Origin: an uncultured Planctomycetota bacterium
GTDB lineage: Bacteria > Planctomycetota > JAJSAM01 > JAKLKS01
Direction: 5' to 3'
Assembly (NCBI GenBank): GCA_964607145.1
Contig: CAZSIX010000015.1
Span: 3,014 to 67,013 of the forward strand
DNA length: 64,000 bases
Position numbers and translations under genes: made by a program. Below, piece by piece: positions 40,663 to 61,792 of the stretch; the first letter of the stretch is position 1; each line of letters starts with the position of its first letter. The notes beneath the pieces are model-generated. The model saw only the letters and a list, made by a program, of their open reading frames with translations. It searched no databases and was not told where the DNA came from.

Positions 40663-41277
40663 ATGATGCGTATCCTGTCGAAGCTTGTCGTCGGCGCGAT
40701 CGTGATCGGCGCCGCGGGGCTGCTCGCTCCTGCGGCCGACGGGCTGCACGTGGTCCTGGACGGCAGTTCCTACTCCGGCGCCGTCCGGACGCGAACCCAG
40801 ATCCGGGTGAAGCGGTCGGGCTTCCAGTGGCCCGCCGAACTGCCCCGCTCGGGCCAGATCGTGTCGAACCGATCCACGGGCCCCGGCTACTCCGCGTCGC
40901 TGAGCTTCTCCGGCGGAAACGTTTCGTTCAGCAGTGCCGCGCTGGGCGGCGTGACGGTCCCGCTGACGGAGCGTCCCGGCCAGGATCGCTACTACGACTT
41001 CACCGTCGCCTCGGGCCTCTTCGCGGACGGAGCCGCCACGCTGGTGACGACCACGGCGCCCGCCATCGGAACGACCTCGACCGTCGTCATCGAGACCATC
41101 GACGGCGTGGGCCTCGTGCGTGGAGATTGGAGCCTCGACACGGTCATGTTCCGCCACCGGTTCCGGTTCACCGGCACGGCGCCCTACCAGTTGCTCCCGA
41201 AGGACTCCGCGAAGACCCGCCGGTTCAAGGGCAAGACGTCGATCTCCGGTGTCCTCCCCAACTCGTTCGCTCCCTAG
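40663..41277 (+). CDS. Secreted hypothetical protein, paralog 2
   Basis: SD GGGAGGTG before ATGATG 40663. Signal MMRILSKLVVGAIVIGAAGLLAPAA. C-terminal TRRFKGKTSISGVLPNSFAP. Confidence 0.7.
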   Translation: MMRILSKLVVGAIVIGAAGLLAPAADGLHVVLDGSSYSGAVRTRTQIRVKRSGFQWPAELPRSGQIVSNRSTGPGYSASLSFSGGNVSFSSAALGGVTVPLTERPGQDRYYDFTVASGLFADGAATLVTTTAPAIGTTSTVVIETIDGVGLVRGDWSLDTVMFRHRFRFTGTAPYQLLPKDSAKTRRFKGKTSISGVLPNSFAP

Positions 41278-41294
41278 GTGATCCCGGGGAGGGA

Positions 41295-41323
41295 TTGACT
41301 CGGTGGGCGCGGCTGCGTAGACT
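41295..41323 (+). promoter_or_regulatory. Sigma-70-like promoter TTGACT-N17-TAGACT upstream of paralog 3
   Basis: Seen directly: ttgact at 41295-41300, a 17-nt spacer, tagact at 41318-41323, about 75 nt before the ATG at 41399. Confidence 0.4.
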
Positions 41324-41398
41324 GGCTACGGAAAGCGGAAGACTGTGGTCGCCGGGGGCAGGCCCGCCGGCACGTAGGAACTCGGAAGGAGGACGGCG

Positions 41399-41926
41399 AT
41401 GAAGGCATTGGTTGTGGCTCTCTGTGGCGCTCTCGTCATCGGGGCGGCGAGCGTGCTGGCGCCGGCCACGCACGACAACATCGTGCTCGACAACACGTTC
41501 TGGGCCGGGACGATCTACGGCCGCGCCAAGATCTCGACGAAGCCCGGCGTGGACGTGAAGACGACGGACTGGATGAACTCCATGGACATCTCCAGCGGCT
41601 CGATCTCGTTCTCCTCGAGCAACTGGGGTTCCTGGTCCGCCTCCACCAGCCCCCGCGAGGGCAAGATCCGGTTCCACGACTTCTGGCTGAACAACGGCGA
41701 GGGCGAGCTCCAGTCGTGGGCCGCCAACGCCATCGGGAACATCACCGGGTTCTACACCTCCATCGACTCCGCCGAGGGCAGCGGCTACGTCCGCGGCAGC
41801 TGGGACTTGGGCAACATCCTCATGCGGTCCAGCACGCGCGTCCGCGGGTTCGGCACGGTCAACGGTCAGCCGCGGACCTTCCGCGGGAAGCTCTCCATCG
41901 ACGGCATGCTGTTCAACAACGACTAG
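41399..41926 (+). CDS. Secreted hypothetical protein, paralog 3
   Basis: SD GGAAGGAGG before ATG. Signal MKALVVALCGALVIGAASVLAPA. C-terminal RTFRGKLSIDGMLFNND. Visibly lower GC than its neighbours. Confidence 0.7.
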   Translation: MKALVVALCGALVIGAASVLAPATHDNIVLDNTFWAGTIYGRAKISTKPGVDVKTTDWMNSMDISSGSISFSSSNWGSWSASTSPREGKIRFHDFWLNNGEGELQSWAANAIGNITGFYTSIDSAEGSGYVRGSWDLGNILMRSSTRVRGFGTVNGQPRTFRGKLSIDGMLFNND

Positions 41927-41942
41927 CCTCCGATCGCGATCC

Positions 41943-41980
41943 ACAACGGGGCACCCCGTTCGCGCGGGGTGCCCCGTTCG
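41943..41980. terminator. Two tandem palindromic hairpins (CGGGGCACCCCG / CGGGGTGCCCCG) after paralog 3
   Basis: acggggcaccccgttcgcgcggggtgccccgttcga seen directly. Confidence 0.4.
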
Positions 41981-42049
41981 ATTCCCGGAGTGGTGCGGTG
42001 CCGGCGGATGACTCTCCCGTGACCGCTGCGGCTACCATGGCCGATCCAC

Positions 42050-48820: not shown

Positions 48821-49090
48821 GCCCGCGCGACCGCGCCCTCCGGCGCGCACGACTCCCGCCTTCCGCTGCCGCCCCTTCGCCACTGCGCTGCCCCCCCGGT
48901 TCGTCGCGGTCGCCGCCCTCCGTCGCCGCGACGGCGCGGCCCATTGTCCCGGACCGCGCGCTCCCGTGCCCAAGGCCGGCCGAGGGTCGGGGAGGGGGTA
49001 CACGCCCTCGCCCGTACTGTCCGGACCGGCGACACGAAGCGGAAGTCGCGCTCGACGACGGCACGCCGGACCCGGGGACAGCGGGTCGCG

Positions 49091-49191
49091 GGACGGGCGC
49101 GGATCGGGCCGCCGGCGGATAGGATGCCCCCGTCGCGAGGACGCGGCCCTGGGTCCCCGTAGCTCAGTAGGATAGAGCGGCTGGTTCCTAA
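49091..49191 (+). repeat. Left inverted repeat: copy of the tRNA-Arg 5' flank (about 62 bp) plus tRNA nucleotides 1-39 (acceptor stem to anticodon loop), truncated after TTCCTAA
   Basis: Sequence ...gccgccggcggataggatgcccccgtcgcgaggacgcggccctgg-GTCCCCGTAGCTCAGTAGGATAGAGCGGCTGGTTCCTAA is the reverse complement of 51901-52001, with about 2 mismatches over 101 bp. Confidence 0.85.
49153..49191 (+). pseudogene. Truncated tRNA-Arg(CCT) 5' half (39 nt), non-functional
   Basis: Identical to nt 1-39 of the intact tRNA at 51863..51939. The downstream sequence (ggcggggg...) cannot pair to close the anticodon stem. Confidence 0.8.
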
Positions 49192-49449
49192 GGCGGGGGT
49201 CGGGTCGAAAGGCTCCCGCGGGCGCGTTCCAACCTCGCCACGACGCGCCACTTGCGGCGCCCCCCGTAGAGCGGCACTTTCCGTTGTGGACCTCAGGTCC
49301 GCAGGAGGTGTCCACGGTTGCTCGTTGCGCTCTGTCGTTGATGGGGGGAGGACGAGTGACGGTGGAGTTGCTCGAAGGACGCGCGAAGCCTCCTACCGCC
49401 CGTAGACTTCACTCCGATCGCTGTAGGCGGCCTGCACAGGAGGGACCCC

Positions 49450-50247
49450 ATGGTCTCCGAGCTCCTCTGTCTCCAGATTGCGAGATGCCTCCATGGTCGC
49501 ACCTCCGTGTTCAGTCGGACGTTCAACCTGGAGGACAACGCGCCGCCGAAGACCGAGCGGTCGGAGGAGAAGAACTCGCTGACGGAAGCAAGCCTGATCA
49601 GGCCCCTCCTCGCGGAGCACGATCTGGCCGACATCGAAGCAGCCATTCGATGGCTTCAACTGGGAGAGTACCTCGGGCGCACGCAGTGGGGACTCGGGGG
49701 CCCTTGGGTACACGTGCTCACCCCGAAGGGGGTCGAGCTATGTGAGCGGGGAGGATTCCCCGAGCAGGAACGACGGCTCTTCTATCACGAGGAGCCTCAC
49801 CAGGTCTTCCTGGCGCACCAGTTTCGATCCGAGGACGAAGGCCTGGAGAGCGCTCTACGAGCGACGCTCTCAGATGCGGGGTACGTCGTCGTGGATGGCC
49901 AGGTCGATGGCCTCGAGCAGTTCCGCCAAGCGATCTTCGCGAAGATCAAGAGGTCACGGTTCTTCGTTTGTCTGCTGACCCAACGCGCGAGGCTTGAGGC
50001 TGGGGGGGCGGTATCGAGCGTCTGGCTCTACCAGGAGATCGGAGCCGCTGTGGCGTTGAAGAAGTCACCGTTGCTCTTCGTCGAAGACGGGATGGACCCT
50101 CACTTCGCCGGAGAGTTGCAGAAGACGTATGAGTACGTTCCGTTCACTCGAGGATCCGCAAGCCCGCAGTGGTGCAAAGCCGTGTCACGACTCAACACTG
50201 ATCTTGCTCGCGAGGGGATCCCCTTGCCCAAGGGCAAGGCCGAGTAG
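49450..50247 (+). CDS. TIR-domain protein (N-terminal unknown domain of about 110 aa + C-terminal TIR-like domain with conserved glutamate)
   Basis: SD CAGGAGGGACCCC before ATG. TIR-like blocks: QVFLAHQFRSEDEG (betaA), LRATLSDAGYVVVDGQ, IFAKIKRSRFFVCLLTQ, and SSVWLYQEIGAAVA (W..E motif with the putative catalytic E). Lower GC than the flanks. Confidence 0.7.
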   Translation: MVSELLCLQIARCLHGRTSVFSRTFNLEDNAPPKTERSEEKNSLTEASLIRPLLAEHDLADIEAAIRWLQLGEYLGRTQWGLGGPWVHVLTPKGVELCERGGFPEQERRLFYHEEPHQVFLAHQFRSEDEGLESALRATLSDAGYVVVDGQVDGLEQFRQAIFAKIKRSRFFVCLLTQRARLEAGGAVSSVWLYQEIGAAVALKKSPLLFVEDGMDPHFAGELQKTYEYVPFTRGSASPQWCKAVSRLNTDLAREGIPLPKGKAE

Positions 50248-50281
50248 CGAACCTCTCACGTCCTCAGGAGATGTGCGCCTC

Positions 50282-51274
50282 CTATTCCTCCTCCGCCCTG
50301 AGTCGCCGCCAGTGCTCCTCGTTGTCCATGAACGGCCTTCCGAGGTCGATGTTCCCAAGGTTCGCTGAGGCGAGTCGATGGAGTACGCGTGCGCCATCTC
50401 GCACGAACAGCCCCAGCCTCTCGGCGAGAACCTGAAAGGTCGGCGTCGACCCGCCCTTCTTCCCAAGAAGCGAGGCGATGTGCTCGCGGTCGGCGGCTCG
50501 GTCGACGTTCTCGATGTTGCTGAACACGGCCTCCATCACGGTGGCGGCACTGACACGATCGCCTCTGCGCCGCACGTTCTTTGGGGCAAACGGCAGGAGA
50601 GTCATGATCTCCTGGTCGAGAGCGTCATCGTCGAGCCAGCCCGGGGGCGTCGGCGTGAACAGGTTGAAGTCCTCTCCGACAACGGGCATCGTCGTTCCGC
50701 GCTGCCACGGGCGGTTGGAGTGGACAACGAACCGGTTGCGATAGAAGCGCATGTTGTAGTGGAGCCAGAGCATGTGGCCCCGACAGTCAGTCCAGAGGTC
50801 GTTGAGGATCTTGGTCCGCCCTGCTTCGAACTCCAGGAGGAGTTCCACGAAGGGGTGCTTCTTCTTCCACGCCGCCGGCTCGATGCACATCGCTTGGAGA
50901 GCGACCTGATCCAGCAGCACACCGCCGAAAACGTAGAGAGACTCGAGGTCCAGCTGCATGAGCCCCGTGAGTGAGTGCTGCTCGCGGAGCGCCTTCTGTA
51001 CCTCCTCAGGATAGGGAGTTCCTCTGGGCCACTCCGCGCGGCGCGTCGCGGAGGTGAGCGCCGCGAGTTCGTTCAATCGCTCTCTGCCGCGGTAGAGGCG
51101 ACCGAGGATCTTCCTGCAGTCGCCAAGCCGTGCGAGCGCGTGGCCGCTGTGATGGAAGAACCCGTACGGTCCGGCCGGGGGCTTCAGACCTTCGAGGACG
51201 GTCTTGCTGAGTCGATGCAGGGCCGCCTCTGCATCGCCGAACAGCTTCTTCATCTCGTCGGGTGGGATGGCCAT
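50282..51274 (-). CDS. Hypothetical protein (330 aa), unknown function, in the TIR cassette
   Basis: SD GGGAGA 5 nt before ATG 51274. Non-repetitive, balanced composition in a lower-GC segment. No recognisable motif. Confidence 0.6.
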   Translation of the reverse strand: MAIPPDEMKKLFGDAEAALHRLSKTVLEGLKPPAGPYGFFHHSGHALARLGDCRKILGRLYRGRERLNELAALTSATRRAEWPRGTPYPEEVQKALREQHSLTGLMQLDLESLYVFGGVLLDQVALQAMCIEPAAWKKKHPFVELLLEFEAGRTKILNDLWTDCRGHMLWLHYNMRFYRNRFVVHSNRPWQRGTTMPVVGEDFNLFTPTPPGWLDDDALDQEIMTLLPFAPKNVRRRGDRVSAATVMEAVFSNIENVDRAADREHIASLLGKKGGSTPTFQVLAERLGLFVRDGARVLHRLASANLGNIDLGRPFMDNEEHWRRLRAEEE

Positions 51275-51295
51275 CCAATCTCCCGCTCTGCCGAT

Positions 51296-51826
51296 TCACT
51301 GCGTGCGCACGGGTACGACGCCGACTCCACCGCCGCCCTTGCTCTGGAACCGCGCGACCAGAGCCCTTTCCATCTCAGGCTTGGTCTCGACGTCTGCGAA
51401 GAAGGCTCTCGATGCCTGAACGAGTGCGGCGAACAGGTCCTCTGCGTTCAGGAGTGTCTGTCCGGTCCCCTGGTCAACCTTCAGGTGCTGGTGCCCATTG
51501 TGGTGGGTGAGAAGGAACCCGCGCGGTGAGAAGGCATGCACGAGACCGTTTCGGAGATCGTAGAGGGCGCTGGCGTGGCCGTGGTACTCGCTCGGAAAGT
51601 ACTCGCGGACAAATGCCGTGAACCGGTTCTCCACGCCCTTCACCTTCTTCGATCCTTCGTAGCGGTAGCCCGCGAGCGCGTCGACTCCCGTGACCATGCA
51701 GACGAAGGACAGGAACGCGCTGTCGTTGTTGATCATCGGGGCGATCCCGCCGAGGTACCACTGGCCGAAGTACTGGCGGACTGCTGCGGACTCCTCAGTC
51801 ACGGCGTTCCCTCCGATCCTCCCCAT
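51296..51826 (-). CDS. Hypothetical protein (168-176 aa), unknown function, first gene of a two-gene operon in the TIR cassette
   Basis: ATG at 51826 lacks an SD. An internal GTG at 51802 is preceded by GGAGGG at 6 nt spacing and is the more likely start. The stop is 21 nt before the next gene start. Confidence 0.55.
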   Translation of the reverse strand: MGRIGGNAVTEESAAVRQYFGQWYLGGIAPMINNDSAFLSFVCMVTGVDALAGYRYEGSKKVKGVENRFTAFVREYFPSEYHGHASALYDLRNGLVHAFSPRGFLLTHHNGHQHLKVDQGTGQTLLNAEDLFAALVQASRAFFADVETKPEMERALVARFQSKGGGGVGVVPVRTQ

Positions 51827-51862
51827 CGATGGAGCGAGCAGGCGAGGACGGGGGAGCGGGGC

Positions 51863-51939
51863 TGGTATCCCCGGCAGGAGTCGAACCTGCGACCTGCTGG
51901 TTAGGAACCAGCCGCTCTATCCTACTGAGCTACGGGGAC
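51863..51939 (-). tRNA. tRNA-Arg (anticodon CCT), 77 nt with encoded CCA
   Basis: Folded by hand: acceptor GTCCCCG/CGGGGAT (G1-U wobble), D arm GCTC-AGTAGGATA-GAGC, anticodon arm GCTGG-TTCCTAA-CCAGC, variable AGGTC, T arm GCAGG-TTCGACT-CCTGC, discriminator A, CCA. Confidence 0.85.
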
Positions 51940-52001
51940 CCAGGGCCGCGTCCTCGCGACGGGGGCATCCTATCCGCCGGCGGCCGGATCCCCGCCCGTC
52001 C
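51901..52001 (-). repeat. Right inverted repeat (5' half of the intact tRNA-Arg plus its upstream flank); partner of 49091..49191
   Basis: Reverse complement of the left repeat. Overlaps the last 30 nt or so of the integrase gene. Confidence 0.85.
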
Positions 52002-53304
52002 CGCGAGGCTCCGCGCCCGGGGCCGGCGCGCCGTAGTCGAGCGCGACGAGGCTCGCGCGCGTCCGGCTGTCCACCATCCTTGCGTAGATCTGCGTCGTCG
52101 AGAGGTCGGCGTGCCCGAGCACGCCCTGCAGGTCGGTCACCGCGGCGCCGCCCTCGAGGAAGTGCACGGCGAACGTGTGCCGGAGCGAGTGGAACGTGAG
52201 CCCCCGCCGTCCGTCGAGCCCGGCCCTCCTGAGCGCGCGCCCGAAGGCCCGCCGCACGGTGACCCACGGCCGCCCGTACCCGGAGAGGAAGATGGGCTCC
52301 GCGTCGGGGATCTCGCGCCTCTCCTTCTCGGCCCGCGCCGCCCGGGTGCGGAGAAGTTCCTCGGCGAGCCGCGGGTGGAGCGGGATCCGCGACGCGTTCC
52401 CGACCTTCGGCCGGAAGAGCGAGAGCGTCCCCGTCCCGAAGTTCACGTCGCCCCAGGTGAGCCGCAGCAGTTCCCCGAGCCGCGCGCCGGTGTAGAGCCC
52501 CGCGGCGACGAGCGGCCGGAGCGCCGGGCCCGTAGCATCGAGGAGCCGGAGCGCTTCCTCCTTCGCGAGCGCGACTCGGGGCTGACGGACCTCGCGGGCC
52601 TTCGTGACGCGGGCGATGGGGTTCTCGCGGAGACGTCCGAGCCGCACGAGGCGGTTGAACGAGGCCCCGAGGACCATCAGCGCCCGGTTCACGGTCGCGT
52701 TGGAGCAGGCCCTCGCGACCTCCCTCACCTCGGGGTGGTCCACACGCCCGGGGCGACGGACGGTCTTCCACGAGCGCTCGATGCGCCACGCGCGGAAGGC
52801 CTCGATGTCGGCCGGCGTCACCGCTTCCGCGGGGAGCCCGGCGAGCGCGCTCCGAGCGATGGTGCTCCGGTGGCCGGCGTAGCCCTCGACAGTGCTCGCA
52901 CAGCGACCCGAGACCCGGCGCGAGTCGATGTACTCGTCGATGGCGTCGAGGACGGAGAACACGCGCGGGGCGCCGTCAGCGGACGGCGCGCCCCCTACGT
53001 TCCCCTCCCGCAGGCCCGCGGCGGAGTGCCCGCCGCCACCGGGCGCGAGGACGGACGGGGGAGGCTCGTATCGCCCCGCGAGGAGCGCCTTGCGCACCTC
53101 GGCCAGGAGGGCCTCCGCCTGGCGCCTGGACGGGACCGCGCGGACGATCTCGCGGACACGGCCGTTGGGCGCGCGGCGACGCTCGGGGTCCGGGTAGCGC
53201 ACGTACCACGAGGACTTCGAGGTGGGTTTGCGGTAGACGCGGCCGAAGAGCCGCCGCCGCCGGCGGCCGCCGGCCCCGTCCGGGGAGTCAGGCGCGGTGT
53301 CCAT
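51970..53304 (-). CDS. Tyrosine-type site-specific recombinase / phage integrase
   Basis: Catalytic region motifs: ARLGELLRLTWGDV, HSLRHTFAVHFL, GHADLSTTQIYAR (R..H..R..Y). ATG at 53304 (MDTAPDSP...FGRVYRKPTSKSSWYVRY); in-frame ATGs at 53346 and 53367 are alternatives. The upstream 214 aa of the ORF is junk. Confidence 0.85.
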   Translation of the reverse strand: MDTAPDSPDGAGGRRRRRLFGRVYRKPTSKSSWYVRYPDPERRRAPNGRVREIVRAVPSRRQAEALLAEVRKALLAGRYEPPPSVLAPGGGGHSAAGLREGNVGGAPSADGAPRVFSVLDAIDEYIDSRRVSGRCASTVEGYAGHRSTIARSALAGLPAEAVTPADIEAFRAWRIERSWKTVRRPGRVDHPEVREVARACSNATVNRALMVLGASFNRLVRLGRLRENPIARVTKAREVRQPRVALAKEEALRLLDATGPALRPLVAAGLYTGARLGELLRLTWGDVNFGTGTLSLFRPKVGNASRIPLHPRLAEELLRTRAARAEKERREIPDAEPIFLSGYGRPWVTVRRAFGRALRRAGLDGRRGLTFHSLRHTFAVHFLEGGAAVTDLQGVLGHADLSTTQIYARMVDSRTRASLVALDYGAPAPGAEPRGTGGDPAAGG

Positions 53305-53366
53305 GACCGCATGAGGGCGAGGGAGGGCGAGCACCTCAAGGGCCATCGCGCCGGCGGCGGCGGCCA

Positions 53367-53660
53367 TCACGGCGCGCGCCGGAGGACCCGGGCCCGGAGG
53401 GCGTCCACGTCCACCGACGGGCGGCCACGGGGGACGGGCGGCGCCGCGTGCCGATAGTGCAGGGCCGCCACGAACGCCTCCAGGCCGTCGCGCCGCACGA
53501 GCAGACGCCCCCGCCGCGACCCGACTGTCGCCACTCGGATGGACGGGATGCTCCCGTCCGCGAGGAGCGAGTACAGCATCGTCCGACCGACGGGGAGGAG
53601 CGCGAGGGCCTGCGCGACAGAGAGGAGATCCCCCGGTCGGAGGGCGGCGCCGGCGTTCAT
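53367..53660 (-). CDS. Excisionase-like / AlpA-type helix-turn-helix DNA-binding protein
   Basis: LLSVAQALALLPVGRTMLYSLLADGSIPSIRVAT...RRGRLLVRRDGLEAFV resembles HTH_17/Xis. ATG at 53660 (cat 53658-53660). Confidence 0.65.
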   Translation of the reverse strand: MNAGAALRPGDLLSVAQALALLPVGRTMLYSLLADGSIPSIRVATVGSRRGRLLVRRDGLEAFVAALHYRHAAPPVPRGRPSVDVDALRARVLRRAP

Positions 53661-54067
53661 CGCCCGGGAACGCTCGCTGCGCAGACGAACCCGTGCGCGA
53701 CGGCCAGCGCCCGCGGCGCGGCACACACGGGGCCGTGGGGGTGGTGTGCCACGACGACCCCGCAGCGGATGCACCGGACGCCGAGGTCGTCGCCCTCGAC
53801 CAGGCCGAACCGCGCGAGGGCCCTCCGGCGGGCACGCGTGCGGGCGGTCGCGGCGGCGCGGATCTCGTCGAAGGGAGTCGTGTCGATGGGCTCGGCGCGG
53901 CCGCCCGGTCGGGGCGACGCGACGGGCAGCGGAAGCCCCGCCTCAACGTGCAGGTACACGACCACGCGGCGCCGCTGCTCGCGCGTCGTCCGTGGCGGCG
54001 CGTAGCCGAGCCGCAGGAGGTCGAGGATCCTCCGTCGCTGCTCGCGTGTCGGGCCCATGGCGCGCAT
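53657..54067 (-). CDS. Hypothetical protein (136 aa) with Cys/His cluster
   Basis: TAATG overlap with the upstream gene (verified). CxxC...HHPHGPVC near the C-terminus. The stop abuts the excisionase start. Confidence 0.45.
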   Translation of the reverse strand: MRAMGPTREQRRRILDLLRLGYAPPRTTREQRRRVVVYLHVEAGLPLPVASPRPGGRAEPIDTTPFDEIRAAATARTRARRRALARFGLVEGDDLGVRCIRCGVVVAHHPHGPVCAAPRALAVAHGFVCAASVPGR

Positions 54068-54869: not shown

Positions 54870-55241
54870 TCACGGGCGCGGCCCCGCGGAGCGCCGGAGT
54901 TCCTCGCCCCTTCGGCGATGGGCCTCGCGCTGCGCGGCGGTGAGGCCCGACCAGGCGGCGTTCAGGTCGCAGGCGCGGACCCAGGCTCGCGCGCGGTCCC
55001 ACCGGCGGCGCGCGTACTCCCGTCGGCGCCGGCAGGGAACGCCGCAGTACCGCCGGGACCGCCGGCCGCGCGCCGATGGCGCCCCGAGCGGCGCCCCGCA
55101 CGCCGCACACGCCGGGACCGCGCTTGTCTCCACCGGCCCCCCCTCCCCTTGTTCCGCCGGCGCGCACGCGGGCTTGCGCGCCCGGTCCCGGGGCCGAGAC
55201 CGGTCACGAACGACCTCCCCCCGGGGCTCCGGCCGCTTCAT
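54870..55241 (-). CDS. Small basic zinc-ribbon protein (CxxC...CxxC); tentative
   Basis: ATGA overlap with the primase-helicase stop. PACAACGAPL...RRYCGVPCRRRREYARRRW. High Arg content makes this uncertain. Confidence 0.35.
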   Translation of the reverse strand: MKRPEPRGEVVRDRSRPRDRARKPACAPAEQGEGGPVETSAVPACAACGAPLGAPSARGRRSRRYCGVPCRRRREYARRRWDRARAWVRACDLNAAWSGLTAAQREAHRRRGEELRRSAGPRP

Positions 55242-57382
55242 CCGCCGCACCCGGTCATGCGGGGCTCCTCGTCCGCCGTCGGCCCGGCCGCCGCCGTCCC
55301 GGCGAACAGGATTTCCTCCCATCCCCTCCGCGAGGGACGGGAGACCCGCCCCTCCGCTCCGCCCGTGTCCTCCCGTCCCTCTTCGAGGGAGGGACGGGAG
55401 GACGGGACTCCCGTCCCGGGGTCCGGGGACGGGACCGGGACGGGCGGGACGAGTTCACCGCTCGCGACCGCGTAGCGGTAGGGGCTCCCGGGCTTGCCGG
55501 TGCCCGTGCGGACGATGGCGCCCCGGGAGAGGAGGGCCTTGAGCGCGCGGGCGGTGCACTCCCGCTTGCCGCCGATGCCGGCGCAGACCTCGTCACGGGT
55601 CGCGGGTTCGCGCGTGGCGCGCAGGTGGTCGAGCGTGCGCTCCGAGGCCGCGGCCGCACGCACCTCCGCGGCCCCGCCCTGGCGGAGGACGCTCGCGCCG
55701 CGTAGTTCGAGAATCTGCTCGTCGAGCGGGGTCTCCCGGAACCGGCTGTACGCCTGGAGCGACCGGAACGTGTCCGACGGCATCTCCTTCGCCCGCCGGA
55801 GTTCCAGGACGACATCCATCGCGCCCGCGATGGCGGACGACCCGCGCGCCCCCTGGCCCTCCTCGGCGTCGGACTTGCGCAGGTGGTGGATGAGGAGCAC
55901 CGCCAGGTCCTCCCCGGCCGCGTCGAGCACGGCCCCGAGGGCGTCCTGCATCGCACCCGCGTCCTTCTCCGCGTCGCGCCCGAAGCGCCCCCACGCGGTG
56001 AGCGTGTCGATGCAGAGGAGCACCGCGCGGATGCGGCGGGCCTCGCGCACGCCCTCGAGGAGGAAGTCGCGGAGGGAGAACTCTGGGTGCATCTCGCGGC
56101 GGGTGAGGAAGCGGGTGTCGCGGAGGCCGAAGCGCGATGCCTTCTCGTGGATGGTGGCCGGCCCCTCCTCCGAGAGGACGACCGCCGGCCCCGCCGCCGT
56201 CGCGAACCCGGCGAACGGCTCGCCGCGCTCGAGGGCGCGGAGGATGGCGAACACGAACGTCGACTTGCCGGCCTTCGGATGGCCCGACAGCAGCGTCACC
56301 GCTCCGCGCGCGAGGAGGCCCTCGACGATCCACGGGACTCCCTCCGCAGCCTCCTCCGCGAGGTCCTCCACGCCGCGCCAGCGGAGAAGGCCCGGGGCGT
56401 CGCGGACGGCGCTCGCGAGCGCATCGCGGCGACCGGCGCGGAGCGCGTCCGCGACGTCCTTCGCCCCGTCGAGGTCGGCGAGGACGGCGTCCCATTCGAG
56501 GAGGCGAACGGCGGCCCCGGCGGCGCGGAGATCGCGTGTGGCGCGCTCCATGCCCTCGGCCCCGGCGCGGTCGTCGTGGAGCGCGAGGACCACGTCGCGG
56601 CCGCGGAGGGCGCGGGACCACTCCGCGTCGAACCGGAGCGCCCCCGGGAGGGCCAAGCGGACGTGGTCCCGGGCGACGTCCGCCGCGACGACGGCGAGGA
56701 GGTCGTGGCCACCCTCGAGCAGCAGGACCGGCGCGTCGGGCTCCCGCGCGAGCCGGACCACCTCGCCGAGGACGCCGCCGCGGGAACCGGGGAGGTCCTC
56801 CTCCTTCGAGTGCCGCCCAGGGCGGACCTTGGCGCCAACGACCCCGCCGGCCGGCGCGAACAGCGGGAGGACGAGGCGCGCGGGTTCGCCGCGCTCGTCG
56901 GGGAGCACGCCGCCGCCGATGGCGGCGAGCGCCTCGGGAGTCCCGTCGTACCGGGCGAGGAGGTCCCGGACATCGGCGTCATCCCGGCGATCCCGAAAGT
57001 AGATGCGCGCGTCCTCGACGACCTGCTGGAACCGGCCGGGCGCCTGGGCCGGTTCCGGCTGCAGCTCCGGGGCGCCGAAGTACCTCCGCTCCAGTTCCGC
57101 GGCGGCGGCGGCCGATCCGTCGAGCCCGCGGACCTCGACGGCCAGCGCGAGGAGCCCTCCCGCACCGAACCCGCAGACCCGGCACTCGGCCGACGCGCCG
57201 TCCTTCGCGACGACGAGGGAGGGGTGGCGGTCGCCGTTGCGGTGGCGCTCGCCCCGGGGGCAGCGAACCGCCGCGCCCGGGCGGGGGGCGTCGCGAAGGC
57301 CGATGAGCTCCCCAAGGACCCTGGGCGCGAGGCCCGCGTCTCGGAGCCGATCCACGACGCTCGGCCAGGCGCGGGGGCTCAC
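55238..57382 (-). CDS. Replication primase-helicase fusion: CHC2-like zinc finger + Toprim primase domain + AAA_25/RepA-like (RecA-fold) ATPase
   Basis: GTG at 57382 with GGAGGAG SD. Zn-finger CPRGERHRNGDRHPSLVV...CRVCGFG. Toprim-like VLLLEGGHDLLAV...VVLALHDDRAGAEG. Walker A LLSGHPKAGKSTF, Walker B AVLLCIDTL, and LAVLLIHHLRKSD. Confidence 0.75.
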   Translation of the reverse strand: MSPRAWPSVVDRLRDAGLAPRVLGELIGLRDAPRPGAAVRCPRGERHRNGDRHPSLVVAKDGASAECRVCGFGAGGLLALAVEVRGLDGSAAAAAELERRYFGAPELQPEPAQAPGRFQQVVEDARIYFRDRRDDADVRDLLARYDGTPEALAAIGGGVLPDERGEPARLVLPLFAPAGGVVGAKVRPGRHSKEEDLPGSRGGVLGEVVRLAREPDAPVLLLEGGHDLLAVVAADVARDHVRLALPGALRFDAEWSRALRGRDVVLALHDDRAGAEGMERATRDLRAAGAAVRLLEWDAVLADLDGAKDVADALRAGRRDALASAVRDAPGLLRWRGVEDLAEEAAEGVPWIVEGLLARGAVTLLSGHPKAGKSTFVFAILRALERGEPFAGFATAAGPAVVLSEEGPATIHEKASRFGLRDTRFLTRREMHPEFSLRDFLLEGVREARRIRAVLLCIDTLTAWGRFGRDAEKDAGAMQDALGAVLDAAGEDLAVLLIHHLRKSDAEEGQGARGSSAIAGAMDVVLELRRAKEMPSDTFRSLQAYSRFRETPLDEQILELRGASVLRQGGAAEVRAAAASERTLDHLRATREPATRDEVCAGIGGKRECTARALKALLSRGAIVRTGTGKPGSPYRYAVASGELVPPVPVPSPDPGTGVPSSRPSLEEGREDTGGAEGRVSRPSRRGWEEILFAGTAAAGPTADEEPRMTGCGG

Positions 57383-57576
57383 GACCTCTCCTCCCCGACG
57401 CCCTCGACCTGCACGGTGGCGACGGGAACTCCCCGCTCGTTCGCCTGGAGCCAGGTGCAGCCGTTCTCGTGGGCCAGCTGCACCCCTCGCACGGCACCGG
57501 CCCGGACCCGCGCCCGAGTGGTCGCCCCGCACCCCGGGCACCGGACCACCGCGACCGACTCGTCCCTGTCCGCCAT
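57379..57576 (-). CDS. Small zinc-ribbon protein (65 aa), first gene of the integrase-primase operon
   Basis: SD GAGGAGG 4 nt before ATG 57576 (verified). RCPGCGATT...NGCTW. The stop abuts the primase GTG. Confidence 0.6.
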   Translation of the reverse strand: MADRDESVAVVRCPGCGATTRARVRAGAVRGVQLAHENGCTWLQANERGVPVATVQVEGVGEERS

Positions 57577-57807
57577 CGAGCCTCCTCAGCCGATCGCCCC
57601 CGCACGGCTCCGTCGAGGCTCTGCCCTCACGGAGGCTCGTGCAACCTGTGCGACGGTCTCGAGCGTCGGTCACCGGGAGCGTCGTTCAACACCCGGAGCT
57701 GATCGGGCGTCCTGCTCCGTCAGACTCCGGCAACCCACCCGGGGCGGCGGCTTGCGTCGGTTACCTTCTGGCGTTCTCTCGTGGGATGGACCATCAGGGC
57801 GAACGAG

Positions 57808-60642
57808 ATGACCAGCGAGGAGGAGACCCGGCAGCGGCTCATCGACCGCCAGTTGCGGCTGGCGGGGTGGGACCTCCGCGACCCGACCCAGGTCGTCGAG
57901 GAGCACGAGATCGACCTGGTCAAGGCGGGCGTCGTTCCGCCGTTCGCGGCAGAGGTCGCCCCCGAGCACTACGGGAAGCAGTACGCCGACTACGCGCTGC
58001 TCTGCCGGGGAAAGGTGCTCGCTGTCCTCGAGGCGAAGAAGACCTCCAAGGACGCGCAGCTCGGGCAGGAGCAGGCGCTGCAGTACGCCGAGAACATCCA
58101 GCGACTGCAGGGGGGACGGGTGCCGTTCGTGATGTACTCGAACGGCCACGACTACTTCCTCTGGGAGTCCGACCGTTATCCTCCTGTCGCGATCCTCGGG
58201 CTGCCGAGCCGGTCGGACCTCGAGTGGATGGACCAGAGGCGGGAGAGCCGGAAGCCACTTTCCGTCGAGCTCATCAACCCGACCATCGCCGGGCGTGACT
58301 ACCAGATCGCCGCAATCCGCGCCGTCCTCGAAGGGCTGGAGGCCCGGCGGCGCAAGTTCCTGCTCGTCATGGCCACCGGGACCGGGAAGACCCGCGTGGC
58401 CATGGGGCTCATCGACGCCCTCCAGCGGGCCCACTGGGCGAAGCGGGTGCTCTTCTTGGTCGATCGCATCGCCCTGCGCGATCAGGCCATCGACGCGTTC
58501 CGCGAGAACCTCCCCGACAGCCCGTACTGGCCGCGGACTGAGGGGAAGTCCGTGGAGGCGGAGTGGCGCGGGGACCGTCGGCTCTACTGCACGACCTACC
58601 AGACGATGCTGAACCTCATCGAGTCCGGGAGGACTCCCGAGACGCGCCTCTCGCCCCACTTCTTCGACCTCGTCATCGCCGACGAGAGCCACCGGTCCAT
58701 CTACAATACGTACAAGGCGGTCCTCGACTGGTTTTCCGGCATCCGTCTCGGTCTCACCGCGACACCGCGCGACCACATCGATCACGACACCTTCGCGATC
58801 TTCGACTGCGAGGCGCAGGACCCGACGTACGCGTTCACCTACGACGAGGCGATCGCCCACGAACCGCCGTACCTCTGCGGCTTCCGCGTCCTGAAGGTCC
58901 GCTCGAAGTTCCAGCTCGAGGGCATCCAGGGAGGGACGCTCCCGGAGCCCGTGCAGAAGAAGCTGATCGCGGAGGGGAAGGACCCCTACGAGATCGACTT
59001 CGAGGGGAGCGAGCTTGAGAGGAAGGTCACGAACTCCGGGACCAACGCGGTCATCGTCCGGGAGTTCATGGAGGAGTGCATCAAGGACCCGACGGGGACC
59101 CTTCCCGGGAAGTCGATCTTCTTCGCCATCTCCAAGGACCACGCCCGGCGAATCGCCGCGATTTTCGACCAGCTCTACCCCGAGTACGCCGGACGGCTGG
59201 CCCGCGTCCTGGTCTCCGAGGATTCTCGCGTCCATGGCAAGGGCGGGCTCCTCGACCAGTTCAAGCACAGCGGCATGCCCCGGGTCGCGCTCTCCGTGGA
59301 CATGCTCGACACCGGCATCGATGTGCCGGAGGTGGTGAACCTCGTCTTCGCCAAGCCGGTGTTCAGCTACACGAAGTTCTGGCAGATGATCGGTCGCGGG
59401 ACCCGCGTCCTCCCCGCGCCGGGGAAGAGGAAGTCGTGGTGCCCGGAGAAGGACGAGTTCCTCATCATCGACTGCTGGGGGAACTTCGACTTCTTCAAGA
59501 TGAAGCCCGAGGGGAAGGAGCCCAAGCCCCAGGTCGCGCTCCCCGTGCGGCTCTTCCACGCGAGGCTCGACCTCCTCGACGCCGGGACCTCGAGTGGGCA
59601 ACCTGACGCCACGGCCGTCGCCGTCGAGGGGCTGCGAGCGGACCTCGCCGCGCTCCCGGAGCAGAACGCCATCGTCACCGGGAGCCGGAGGGACCTCGAC
59701 CCCGTCCTTGCCGACGAGTTCTGGCTCCACCTGACGCCCACGAAGGTCGCCGCGCTGCGCAGTTCGGTGGCCCCGCTCCTCCGGGCGCGGTCGGTGCTCG
59801 AACCGAAGGCGATGCGGTTCGAGATGGAGGCGGTCCAGCTCCTGTGCGCCCGGCTCGGGAGCGCCGGGGTCCTGCTAGAGGGACTGCGCGACAGCCTGGT
59901 CGAGCAGGTCGCCGAACTCCCGCTGTCCGTCAACACGGTGGCGGAGGAGCGGGCTTCGGTTGAGCAGGCGCTTCGGCCCGGCTGGTGGGACGAGACGGCG
60001 ATCCCGGAGGTCTGGTCCACCACCAAGAGGCTCGCGCCTCTCATGCGGTTCCGGCAGGCCCCTCGCGATCCGCTCCTGCGCCTCGACCTGGCCGACCTCA
60101 CGGTGATCAAGGAGGGTCTGGAGTTCGGGCCGGGTCACGAGGGCCGCACGAGCACCGGGTTCCGGGCTCGCGTGGAGGCCTACGTCCGTTCGCTCGTCGC
60201 GACGAACCCGGTGATGGCCCGGATCGCGGCCGGCGAGACCCCGGGGGAGGTCGAGCTGGCGGAAGTGGCGGAGATCCTCCGTCAGGGGGATCCGGTCGTC
60301 ACCGAGGACGCCCTCCGGCGTGCCTACGACCTCCGCGCAGCGGGGCTGACGCAGCTCCTCCGGCACGTGCTGGGGTTGGAGCGCCTGCCCTCCTGGGGGG
60401 AAGCGGTCACCGCCGCCGTCGACGGGTTCATCGCGAGGCACACGACTTTGACCCAGCTCCAGATCCGGTTCCTCCAGACCCTCCGCACGTTCCTTCTACA
60501 GAACCGCCAGTTCGATCGGGGCGCCCTCCTCGAGCCCCCCTTTACCCAGCTCCACCCCAGCGGCGCCCGCGGGGTCTTCTCCGGGCCCGAACTCCAGGAG
60601 GTCGTTGCCCTCGCGGAGGGGCTGGTCGCCGGAAGGGGGTAG
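57808..60642 (+). CDS. HsdR-family helicase/nuclease (type I restriction R subunit-like: HSDR_N nuclease domain + ResIII/DEAD-DEAH helicase)
   Basis: N-terminal EEETRQRLIDRQLRLAGW...YADYALL...VLAVLEAKK (Mrr/HsdR_N-like). Walker A LVMATGTGKT. DEAH-like LVIADESHRS. GLTATP. Helicase C MLDTGIDVPEVVNLVF...QMIGRGTR. An in-frame GTG at 57781 is the alternative start. Confidence 0.75.
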   Translation: MTSEEETRQRLIDRQLRLAGWDLRDPTQVVEEHEIDLVKAGVVPPFAAEVAPEHYGKQYADYALLCRGKVLAVLEAKKTSKDAQLGQEQALQYAENIQRLQGGRVPFVMYSNGHDYFLWESDRYPPVAILGLPSRSDLEWMDQRRESRKPLSVELINPTIAGRDYQIAAIRAVLEGLEARRRKFLLVMATGTGKTRVAMGLIDALQRAHWAKRVLFLVDRIALRDQAIDAFRENLPDSPYWPRTEGKSVEAEWRGDRRLYCTTYQTMLNLIESGRTPETRLSPHFFDLVIADESHRSIYNTYKAVLDWFSGIRLGLTATPRDHIDHDTFAIFDCEAQDPTYAFTYDEAIAHEPPYLCGFRVLKVRSKFQLEGIQGGTLPEPVQKKLIAEGKDPYEIDFEGSELERKVTNSGTNAVIVREFMEECIKDPTGTLPGKSIFFAISKDHARRIAAIFDQLYPEYAGRLARVLVSEDSRVHGKGGLLDQFKHSGMPRVALSVDMLDTGIDVPEVVNLVFAKPVFSYTKFWQMIGRGTRVLPAPGKRKSWCPEKDEFLIIDCWGNFDFFKMKPEGKEPKPQVALPVRLFHARLDLLDAGTSSGQPDATAVAVEGLRADLAALPEQNAIVTGSRRDLDPVLADEFWLHLTPTKVAALRSSVAPLLRARSVLEPKAMRFEMEAVQLLCARLGSAGVLLEGLRDSLVEQVAELPLSVNTVAEERASVEQALRPGWWDETAIPEVWSTTKRLAPLMRFRQAPRDPLLRLDLADLTVIKEGLEFGPGHEGRTSTGFRARVEAYVRSLVATNPVMARIAAGETPGEVELAEVAEILRQGDPVVTEDALRRAYDLRAAGLTQLLRHVLGLERLPSWGEAVTAAVDGFIARHTTLTQLQIRFLQTLRTFLLQNRQFDRGALLEPPFTQLHPSGARGVFSGPELQEVVALAEGLVAGRG

Positions 60643-60729
60643 TCGAGGCCGATAAAGGGGTACTCTCGACAACCAGATTACCCCTTTACAGCTGGCCCTT
60701 GCCCGGATAGGCTACGCCCCCGAACGGCC

Positions 60730-61788
60730 ATGCACTCCCTCACACCCGCCTACCTCGACCGCCTCTCCTTCTCTGCGGAGGAGGCCGCCGCTCTGTCCGC
60801 CCTGATGGAGATGCGCGGGCGCCAGGAGCTCTTCGTCAACCAGAAGCCCGAGGTACTGGAGTCCCTGCGCCAAGTCGCCATCATCGAGTCCACGGAGTCG
60901 AGCAACCGCATCGAGGGCATCTCGGCGCCCCGGGACCGGATCGAGGCCATCGTCCTCCGCCCCACGGAGCATCGGAACCGCTCCGAGCAGGAGATCGCCG
61001 GCTACCGGGACGCGCTCGCCCTCATCCACGAGTCCCACGAGCACATGCCGCTCACGGTGAACGTGCTCCTGCAGATCCACCAGATGCTCTACCGCTACCA
61101 CCCCGGTCCCGGGGGGCGGTTCAAGCTCGCGGACAACCGCATCGACCACTACGACGGGAAGGGGAACCTCGTCCGTGTCCGATTCCGTCCCACTCCGGCA
61201 TTCGAGACCCCGGCCGCCATGGATGCGCTCGTCGCGGGGTATCAGGATGCGAACGGCGCCCGGGCGCTGCACCCGCTGGTCGCGGTCCCCCTCACGATCC
61301 TGGACCTGCTCTGCATCCACCCGTTCACGGACGGGAACGGCCGCGTCGCGCGTCTGGCGACGCTCCTGCTCCTCTACCACCACGGGTTCGCGCTCGGGCG
61401 CTACATCAGCCTCGAGCGCATCGTGGAGGAATCGAAAGAGGGATACTACGAGACGCTCGAGGCCAGTTCGAAGGGCTGGCACGAGGGGAAGCACGACGTC
61501 CACCCGTGGCTGAACTACTTCTGGGGCGCGCTGACGCGGGCGGGCCGCGAGTTCGAGGAGCGGGTGGGAAAGGTCGCCGACGCCCCGGGGACCAAGAGCG
61601 AGATGATCCGCGCCGCGGTGATGCGTAGGATCGGCCCGTTCTCCAGTGCGGCGATCGAGAAGGACTGCCCCGGCGTGAGCCACGAGCTTGTTAGGCGCGT
61701 TCTGCGTTCCATGAGAGACGAAGGGATCATCGCGGTTCAAGGACGTGGGCGCGGGGCCAAGTGGCTGCGGTCTGCAGAATCGAGGTGA
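60730..61788 (+). CDS. Fic family protein (Fic/DOC AMPylation-type motif) with C-terminal winged-helix
   Basis: Canonical Fic motif HPFTDGNGRVARL. ATG at 60730. Confidence 0.85.
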   Translation: MHSLTPAYLDRLSFSAEEAAALSALMEMRGRQELFVNQKPEVLESLRQVAIIESTESSNRIEGISAPRDRIEAIVLRPTEHRNRSEQEIAGYRDALALIHESHEHMPLTVNVLLQIHQMLYRYHPGPGGRFKLADNRIDHYDGKGNLVRVRFRPTPAFETPAAMDALVAGYQDANGARALHPLVAVPLTILDLLCIHPFTDGNGRVARLATLLLLYHHGFALGRYISLERIVEESKEGYYETLEASSKGWHEGKHDVHPWLNYFWGALTRAGREFEERVGKVADAPGTKSEMIRAAVMRRIGPFSSAAIEKDCPGVSHELVRRVLRSMRDEGIIAVQGRGRGAKWLRSAESR

Positions 61789-61792
61789 CACG

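Follow-up and report, generated by a model that had tools for sequence, protein, structure and literature searches.

A 2.4-kb patch of foreign composition beside a tRNA-Arg hotspot in the window (the whole 64,000-nucleotide stretch of DNA that was analysed, from an uncultured Planctomycetota bacterium) is probably a horizontally acquired defence islet made up of three independent single-gene conflict modules. The best reading of these three genes, here called A, B and C (Table 1), is that they encode one NADase and two RNases, all predicted and of the abortive-infection type, and not the three-gene TIR system that the first-pass annotation had put forward as a candidate.

Table 1 Features of the three-gene patch and its surroundings, in order of position in the window.
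Feature	Position	Strand	Description and basis
Left repeat arm	49045..49202	+	Repeat search, alignment, pattern search, translation
Palindrome	49285..49303		TGTGGACCT-C-AGGTCCGCA, ~150 nt upstream of gene A
Gene A	49450..50247	+	265-aa ORF
Gene A, residues 1-110	49450..49779	+	Winged helix-turn-helix domain (MarR/HxlR/PadR/TubR-like, by structure model)
Gene A, residues 111-265	49780..50247	+	TIR / N-(deoxy)ribosyl-hydrolase-fold domain (by structure model)
Gene B	50282..51274	-	330 aa; HEPN-fold protein (by structure model)
Gene C	51296..51826	-	176 aa; small protein
tRNA-Arg	51863..51939	-	Anticodon CCT, intact; ARAGORN; Rfam tRNA 69.3 bits
Right repeat arm	51890..52047	-	5' part of the tRNA, its upstream region and the final 26 codons of the intact integrase gene
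Tyrosine integrase	51970..53340	-	Pfam scan
HTH_17 excisionase-like gene	53367-53774		Next after the integrase; Pfam scan
AAA_25 replication-type ATPase	55238-57673		Pfam scan
HsdR	57781-60642		Pfam scan
AAA_15/AAA_21 ATPase	61745-63292		Pfam scan

The three open reading frames listed in the first-pass annotation are all present, and the four peptide blocks that it quoted occur in the 265-aa translation of gene A. Database homologues at E<=1e-3 numbered 84 for A, 120 for B and 66 for C, with start positions conserved among them, and the three are real genes; for gene C the NCBI gene call gives 168 aa, against 176 aa for the ORF. GC content is 0.61-0.65 over 49250-51750 versus 0.74-0.82 on both flanks; the drop noticed earlier was thus confirmed, and the values given for it (58-62% against 72%) were slightly low. 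The GC3 values of the three genes are alike (0.76-0.81), compared with 0.89-0.96 in the genes on either side (AlkZ-like, integrase and AAA_25), and the association of the patch with an integrase was borne out by the tyrosine integrase gene nearby. Gene C starts 36 nt downstream of tRNA-Arg(CCT) and ends 21 nt upstream of gene B, in an operon-like layout that is convergent with A and in which B is preceded by a ribosome-binding site of its own (GGGAGA). Because of this layout and the common GC3, the three genes may have come in together, and local cooperation is thus possible.

Profile HMMs of the three families were run on ORFs from all six reading frames of 99 genomic and metagenomic loci, of which 20 contain a homologue of A, 70 one of B and 9 one of C (~14, ~60 and ~5 distinct contexts, respectively). 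None of the 99 loci carried two of the families at E<1e-3, in a sample in which many contigs are short and no more than 12 loci with A, 18 with B and 5 with C have at least 1.5 kb on both sides; at E<10 a single, spurious match appeared. Nor was any other neighbour family conserved in these loci, where clustering returned transposases, serine recombinases and kinases only, so that the grouping of the three genes into one cassette or system, as first suggested, has no counterpart elsewhere in the sample. Homologues of A, B and C each occur without the other two, in regions that are variable, mobile and well stocked with genes for toxin-antitoxin, restriction-modification and other defence functions: those of A next to HepT/MNT, next to another TIR gene and transposases, next to GmrSD, HEPN_RiboL-PSP, NYN and AAA_15/21 genes, or next to BrnT/BrnA; those of C next to HicA, Phd/ParE, an Eco29kI restriction-modification system with an integrase, WYL-AAA genes or a Sel1 protein; and those of B adjoining serine recombinases. 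Scans of A, B and C against PADLOC (one of the searches recommended at the outset), NCBIfam and PHROGs gave no match, and PADLOC returned nothing relevant for 68 distant relatives of B and C. Searches with tblastn against plasmid and phage collections gave no match to any of the three genes, and IMG/VR scans gave none for A and none for C; given these results and the near-empty outcome of the IMG/VR scans overall, A, B and C do not appear to be typical phage or plasmid genes.

According to its structure model, gene A encodes a MarR/PadR-like winged helix fused to a TIR / N-glycosidase-fold domain. In the AF2 model (pLDDT 90.1, pTM 0.81), the C-terminal half has a flavodoxin-like beta/alpha fold with five parallel strands; it superposes on TIR domains of known structure and resembles those of SARM1, TIRAP, SPARTA and TIR-STING, in agreement with the first-pass annotation, which had called this half TIR-like from its sequence blocks. 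Pfam TIR_2 (PF13676) gave E=1.4e-4 for A, its score of 22.8 bits falling short of the gathering score (28), and matched 28 of the 59 family members at E<=0.01 (best 3.6e-7); a precomputed PF13676 match exists for four relatives. The motif SSVWLYQEIGAAVA of this domain is invariant. Among the 59 sequences, S190, W192 and E196 are invariant or nearly so, with W192 (codon 50023-50025) and the candidate catalytic E196 (codon 50035-50037) strictly invariant, which upholds the glutamate position noted earlier; both residues align with the W and E of a bona fide Pfam-positive TIR protein, and the S-x-W-x3-E motif sits in a predicted helix (190-202) after strand 169-176. The N-terminal domain, previously described as unknown, was recognised as a winged helix by structure comparison, with an invariant W68 in its recognition helix (AIRWLxLGxY); a PDB sequence-profile search with A gave marginal matches alone, the AspA winged helix among them. 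Homologues are patchily distributed over Acidobacteriota, Desulfobacterales, Planctomycetota, Nitrospiraceae and Chromatiales, and this winged helix-TIR family is uncharacterised.

On the basis of its conserved motif, A is a predicted NADase. In such a scheme the winged helix would keep the enzyme domain inactive, or tether it, until a trigger is bound, most likely an invader nucleic acid but perhaps a protein; the TIR domains would then associate with one another, which would set off hydrolysis of the N-glycosidic bond of NAD+ or a related nucleotide, and this hydrolysis would stop the growth of the infected cell. More specifically, and only tentatively, we suggest that A might be a stand-alone anti-phage sensor-effector whose winged helix binds invader DNA directly and nucleates TIR assembly on it, resulting in hydrolysis of NAD+ or nucleotides. 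If so, A would be a case of nucleic-acid-templated TIR activation without an Argonaute, STING or STAND scaffold.

It is rather doubtful that A is mainly a transcription factor, that is, a winged-helix repressor or activator whose TIR/NDT-like domain serves as a non-catalytic nucleotide sensor and which might control neighbouring defence genes in the way that the wHTH-WYL regulators CapW and BrxR do. The kinship of its N-terminal domain with MarR/HxlR/PadR regulators, the palindrome upstream of the gene, which could be a putative operator for the winged helix, and the variable defence neighbourhoods of the family are all compatible with such a role. However, the residues that never vary, the glutamate among them, are concentrated in the catalytic-type motif SSVWLYQE.G.A, and an enzyme therefore fits better than a sensor; furthermore, the neighbours of A are not conserved and hence offer no constant regulon, and gene A is usually not placed divergently beside a defence operon.

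The first-pass annotation recognised no motif in the two partner proteins, and here the results differ, since both carry the R-x4-6-H signature of HEPN proteins and B has the HEPN fold; its statement that they are not SIR2, SLOG or Macro proteins holds, as judged by Pfam and, for B, by structure comparison, and they are HEPN-type instead, C probably so. In its predicted structure, B is a HEPN-fold protein with a four-helix up-down core that superposes on solved HEPN domains, these matches being mixed with many generic helical bundles of similar Z, followed by a beta-hairpin and a C-terminal helical domain. The conserved motif RFYRNRFVVHSNRPWQRGT contains R-N-x4-H within the stretch RFYRNRFVVH; in the alignment, R179 never varies and N180 and H185 each reach at least 90% conservation, and R179..H185 lies at the end of the predicted helix 158-184. 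This position agrees with the description of the HEPN R-x4-6-H motif, which stands at the end of core helix 3 and has a polar residue after the R (PMC3710099). From this motif B is predicted to be a metal-independent RNase. Pfam searches of 62 relatives of B matched no HEPN model, and a PDB sequence-profile search with B gave marginal matches alone. One distant homologue of B was found in a scan of IMG/VR.

Gene C is probably a small HEPN-type RNase, as suggested by its FRNxxVHAF motif, in which R92-x4-H97 is invariant in 53 sequences. No other polar residues of the protein are as well conserved as R92 and H97, which remain at least 90% conserved in 48 distant sequences; by profile search the family comprises 1121 representatives. 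Pfam, PADLOC and PDB profile searches with C gave no match, Pfam searches of 101 relatives of C matched no HEPN model, and the searches of the relatives of B and C together yielded a single marginal match to HEPN_Apea (E=0.052). In neither B nor C did the searches reveal a sensor domain of the CARF, SAVED or SLOG type. With their R-x4-6-H motifs intact, B and C would each act as a stand-alone, metal-independent RNase, an effector of the Abi or toxin type.

A two-gene module of C and B, either toxin-antitoxin or two-HEPN, with A as an unrelated neighbour, is unlikely. Such a module would be in keeping with the 21-nt gap in front of a B gene that has its own ribosome-binding site, with R-x4-6-H in both proteins, with the 'HEPN AbiU2-like' tag that UniRef (and UniRef alone) gives to one B homologue, and with a parallel in the literature, where a HEPN family is listed in operons with AbiU2 ('Bxe_C0808 in operon with AbiU2'; Table 1 of PMC3710099). 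Yet no C homologue was found in the 70 B loci and no B homologue in the 9 C loci, the profiles of B and C are unrelated, and Pfam HEPN_AbiU2 (PF18734) matches neither B (nor its relatives P0115 and P0412) nor C, even at E=10.

In the last alternative, the locus would be one new TIR-based system: on sensing an infection, A would produce a nucleotide signal or deplete NAD+, and its dedicated partners B and C could be, for instance, HEPN RNases switched on by the signal, much as in Thoeris or in cOA-activated Csm6. This idea is favoured by the established roles of TIR enzymes in generating signals and of HEPN RNases as signal-activated effectors, and also by the contiguity of the three genes within 2.4 kb, their shared atypical GC3, the C-B operon convergent with A, and a HEPN gene of some kind within ~2.5 kb in three A contexts including this window. 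It is nevertheless highly improbable and largely refuted, as it is already contradicted by the co-occurrence test, in which even the closest homologues (~50-65% identity) lacked a second family despite kilobases of flank, the HEPN genes near other A loci are unrelated HepT and RiboL-PSP genes of a kind abundant in all defence islands, and neither B nor C has a sensor of the kinds searched for.

The preferred reading, three independent modules beside a tRNA hotspot, is accompanied by an unusual repeat structure. A repeat search detected two inverted arms of 158 nt with 90% identity, and their alignment is perfect between 49107-49191 and 51901-51985, stopping exactly after the anticodon loop. 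Both arms carry the 3' end of the integrase gene, the sequence upstream of the tRNA and the first 38 positions of the tRNA itself. In the left arm, these correspond to an integrase 3'-end relic at 49048-49122, identified by comparing its translation with the intact integrase, and to positions 1-38 of tRNA-Arg(CCT) at 49153-49191 without the 3' half of the tRNA; ARAGORN and Rfam called no tRNA there, and in an Rfam E-value scan of 48900-52200 tRNA-Arg was the sole match. The duplicated tRNA promoter copies described at first are hence real as a duplication, and their orientation is inverted, not direct. An integrase adjoining a tRNA gene is in part what a tRNA-integrated island shows; direct repeats of the tRNA 3' part would complete the picture, and here the repeat is inverted and consists of the tRNA 5' part and its upstream region. 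In the window we found no second copy of the tRNA 3' half, and no direct repeat or further tRNA fragment that could form a simple att pair. Possibly, the DNA enclosed by the arms is a module that the integrase can invert, with one intact tRNA left in either orientation. The stretch from the integrase to the AAA_15/AAA_21 gene is a neighbouring integrative defence island with type I restriction and lies outside the three-gene patch.

If A works as predicted, a compact architecture of a winged helix and a TIR/N-glycosidase domain would join the NAD+-depleting immune effectors and provide a simple model of TIR activity triggered by DNA binding. The families of B (~120 representatives) and C (>1100) would be two unnamed HEPN-type families for the catalogues of Abi systems and toxins, which current defence-finder HMM sets miss. 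For genome scans, adjacency within a low-GC islet is no evidence for a system, and a co-occurrence test quickly dissolved what had looked like a three-gene cassette.

Among the known systems, Thoeris resembles the locus in having a TIR-fold protein in a defence-type setting beside other putative effector genes. A Thoeris variant was rejected, as the neighbours are HEPN-type and not conserved partners, there is no ThsA (SIR2-SLOG or Macro/TM) and neither ThsA nor ThsB was matched in PADLOC; a retron or CBASS fragment was likewise rejected, as the hallmark components are absent. With SARM1 and the TIR NADase effectors (ThsB, TIR-APAZ/SPARTA, TIR-STING, TIR-SAVED and Cat1) A shares the S-x-W-x3-E motif with its glutamate, invariant in the family, and the architecture of a variable N-terminal domain followed by TIR, in neighbourhoods rich in defence and toxin-antitoxin genes. 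In contrast to these effectors, the locus has no Ago, STING, SAVED, CARF or ThsA partner, and A has a MarR/PadR-like winged helix that is absent from all matched TIR effector structures. As fold kin, we also compared the N-glycosidases NDT (nucleoside 2-deoxyribosyltransferase), the CMP hydrolases MilB and BcmB, and DNPH1; the A motif Y-Q-E-I-G-A-A-V-A...K..LL.V presumably resembles the NDT nucleophile motif E-L-G-x-A. The DUF4062 'NIR' NADase domain has been related to this NDT/MilB/DNPH1 group (bioRxiv 10.64898/2026.09.04.749371). None of the 59 A-family members matched Pfam Nuc_deoxyrib_tr or DUF4062 at E<=0.01, versus 28 for TIR_2, and the group comprises metabolic enzymes and effectors joined to STAND NTPases, whereas A is a winged-helix fusion.

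B and C are closest to the HEPN RNases of Abi and toxin systems (AbiU2-like, HepT and LsoA; Anantharaman et al. 2013, PMC3710099), which likewise occur as stand-alone genes in mobile, restriction-modification and toxin-antitoxin contexts, although neither protein is matched by a HEPN family model of Pfam and no MNT-type antitoxin adjoins them. B shares a HEPN-like helical core with R-N-x4-H ending the third core helix, and it is far larger (330 aa) than minimal HEPN toxins, its extra parts being the conserved RPWQRGT beta-hairpin and the helical domain at the C-terminus. In C the motif reads R-[NC]-x3-H, and in most members the R is followed by a polar residue, as in the superfamily; one C homologue stands in an operon with a Sel1-repeat protein, a link that has been reported for AbiU2 (PMC3710099).

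The three ORFs described in the first-pass annotation, here called A, B and C, and the peptide blocks quoted there were all found in the region, and the low GC content of the patch was reproduced (0.61-0.65 at ~49250-51750 vs 0.74-0.82 on either side). The third-position GC of A, B and C (0.76-0.81) is likewise below that of the flanking AlkZ-like, integrase and AAA_25 genes (0.89-0.96), so the three look like recently imported genes. According to Pfam scans, the left neighbour of the patch is a host-like AlkZ-type glycosylase gene, and past the tyrosine integrase follow an HTH_17 excisionase-like gene, an AAA_25 ATPase, a type I restriction R subunit and an AAA_15/AAA_21 ATPase. This integrase-linked defence island runs beyond the end of the window. 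A second lower-GC stretch (0.63-0.69) spans 57781-63292, and a further local dip to 0.66-0.67 lies at 41000-42000, ~8 kb upstream of the three-gene patch.

Features of the low-GC patch and the adjoining island (window coordinates)
Feature	Coordinates	Strand	Remarks
A	49450..50247	+	265 aa
B	50282..51274	-	330 aa
C	51296..51826	-	176 aa; 168 aa in the public gene call
tRNA-Arg(CCT)	51863..51939	-	intact
Tyrosine integrase	51970..53340	-	upstream of tRNA-Arg, on its strand; Pfam scan
Type I restriction R subunit HsdR	57781-60642		within second lower-GC stretch
AAA_15/AAA_21 ATPase	61745-63292		within second lower-GC stretch; unassigned ORFs between HsdR and ATPase

The first-pass annotation had proposed that TIR gene A and the partners B and C may constitute one system. 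From 100 collected loci, 99 with a homologue of A (n=20, ~14 distinct contexts), B (n=70) or C (n=9, 5 distinct contexts) entered the analysis, and all their six-frame ORFs were searched with a profile HMM of each family. Two families were never found in the same locus (0/99 at E<1e-3; one spurious match at E<10), and a second family was also missing around the closest sampled homologues, whose loci included kilobases of flanking sequence. All-against-all clustering of the genes within 4 kb revealed no conserved partner, the clusters consisting of identical contigs, rve transposases, serine recombinases (5 B loci) and kinases and nothing else. A three-gene system is therefore very improbable, and we retain it at all only because C and B are operonic in the window and the shared composition of A, B and C permits joint arrival. 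Homologues of each of the three genes stand alone amid variable, mobile, conflict-rich surroundings, for example A adjoining HepT/MNT, adjoining another TIR gene between transposases, inside GmrSD-HEPN_RiboL-PSP-NYN-AAA_15/21 or downstream of BrnT/BrnA; C adjoining HicA and Phd/ParE, adjoining an Eco29kI restriction-modification system with Vsr and an integrase, following a WYL-AAA pair or overlapping a Sel1-repeat gene. All three families were absent from plasmid and phage reference collections, and IMG/VR held one distant B homologue only. These results favour a defence islet in which three single-gene modules, independent of one another and acquired by horizontal transfer, lie at a tRNA-Arg integration hotspot next to an integrative element with its own restriction and ATPase genes. 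In an Acidobacteriota MAG (locus L003, 6001-7971), a canonical TIR protein (Pfam TIR/TIR_2) follows the A homologue 145 nt downstream, between transposase genes.

The TIR-like character of the C-terminal region of A was borne out. Pfam TIR_2 scores below threshold on A itself (22.8 bits, E=1.4e-4; threshold 28 bits) and matches 28 of 59 aligned relatives (38-64% identity to the query) at E<=0.01, with a best E of 3.6e-7; Nuc_deoxyrib_tr and DUF4062 gave zero Pfam matches in the family. AlphaFold modelled A with confidence (pLDDT 90.1, pTM 0.81), and the top Foldseek matches in the PDB are the SARM1 and TIR-1 TIR domains (E=6.6e-6), followed at lower ranks by BcmB, DNPH1, SPARTA TIR-APAZ, TIR-STING and Cat1. 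Since both TIR and N-glycosidase structures are among these matches, the modelled domain belongs to the TIR / N-(deoxy)ribosyl-hydrolase fold continuum, within which sequence profiles favour TIR. The glutamate of NADase-type TIRs recognised earlier also held up: the block SSVWLYQE.G.A, including W192 and E196, is invariant in the 59 sequences. E196 is located in helix 190-202 after the third strand, and in a profile-sequence alignment it falls opposite the W..E of a TIR protein recognised by Pfam. The N-terminal part, with an AIRWL helix conserved across the family, had been called unknown and is now read as a winged helix (wHTH). A is a wHTH-TIR protein, predicted to be an NADase or N-glycosidase. 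The winged helix would sense or tether, which would license TIR self-association and, in turn, hydrolysis of NAD+, as the domain architecture, the invariance of the catalytic-type motif and the analogy to other TIR effectors lead us to infer. A near-perfect palindrome, TGTGGACCT-C-AGGTCCGCA, which could be an operator, lies at 49285-49303, ~150 nt upstream of the gene.

In both partners, in which no motif had been recognised, we found one of the HEPN R-x4-6-H type. The B family (62 aligned sequences, 32-54% identity) keeps RFYRNRF.VH.NRPWQRGT, with R179 invariant and H185 >=90% conserved, and in the predicted model (pLDDT 92.9, pTM 0.91) this motif falls at the end of helix 158-184, the position of the R-x4-6-H active site of HEPN (Anantharaman et al. 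2013, PMC3710099). B is predicted to be a large HEPN-fold RNase. A Bradyrhizobium homologue is labelled 'HEPN AbiU2-like' in UniRef; with the cut-off relaxed to E=10, Pfam HEPN_AbiU2 still hit neither this homologue nor B. In the C family (1121 representatives at E<=1e-3 in a profile search), no polar residue is better conserved than R92 and H97 within FRNxxVHAF, a textbook R-x4-H motif. Profile and PDB searches with this family gave no match; judged by the motif, C is probably a small HEPN member and a predicted RNase. The B and C profiles show no detectable relation. In L011 (6001-7730), the gene for a 401-aa Sel1-repeat protein starts within that of a C-family homologue; AbiU2-type HEPN genes are associated with Sel1-repeat genes (PMC3710099, Table 1), which hints that C instead of B may represent the AbiU2-like lineage. 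Distant B-family homologues (~30% identity) occur in ~600-650-aa stop-to-stop ORFs (L057:181-1977, L060:9080-10906, L062, L067 and L073), whose extra ~300-aa N-terminal region, without a Pfam match, may represent a sensor domain joined to the B-type HEPN family.

The duplicated tRNA promoter copies noted previously exist, in inverted orientation. The repeat (49045-49202 vs 51890-52047; 158 nt, 90% identity) is 100% identical in the alignment over 49107-49191 / 51901-51985, and perfect identity stops exactly past the anticodon loop TTCCTAA. Each arm contains the last 24-26 integrase codons, the region upstream of the tRNA and positions 1-38 of tRNA-Arg; the translated relic in the left arm reads VALDDGTPDPGTAGRGTGADRAAGG and the intact integrase C-terminus VALDYGAPAPGAEPRGTGGDPAAGG, each ending in a stop. 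The tRNA 3' half follows the right arm only, with no second copy elsewhere in the window. This geometry is not the direct repeat that a simple integration leaves behind, and it looks like two head-to-head element ends from repeated integrase action at the anticodon loop. The 2.7-kb segment between the arms could be invertible, in which case arm recombination would flip it and leave one intact tRNA. This odd inverted att-site geometry could also be a MAG assembly artefact.

A, B and C are reasonable candidates for single-gene defence screens. PADLOC 2.0 and the Pfam family models contain neither the wHTH-TIR architecture nor the B and C families. TIR effectors that carry a variable N-terminal domain are a well-known kind, and so are HEPN Abi proteins or toxins that stand alone; the three families are uncharacterised variants and not categorically new.
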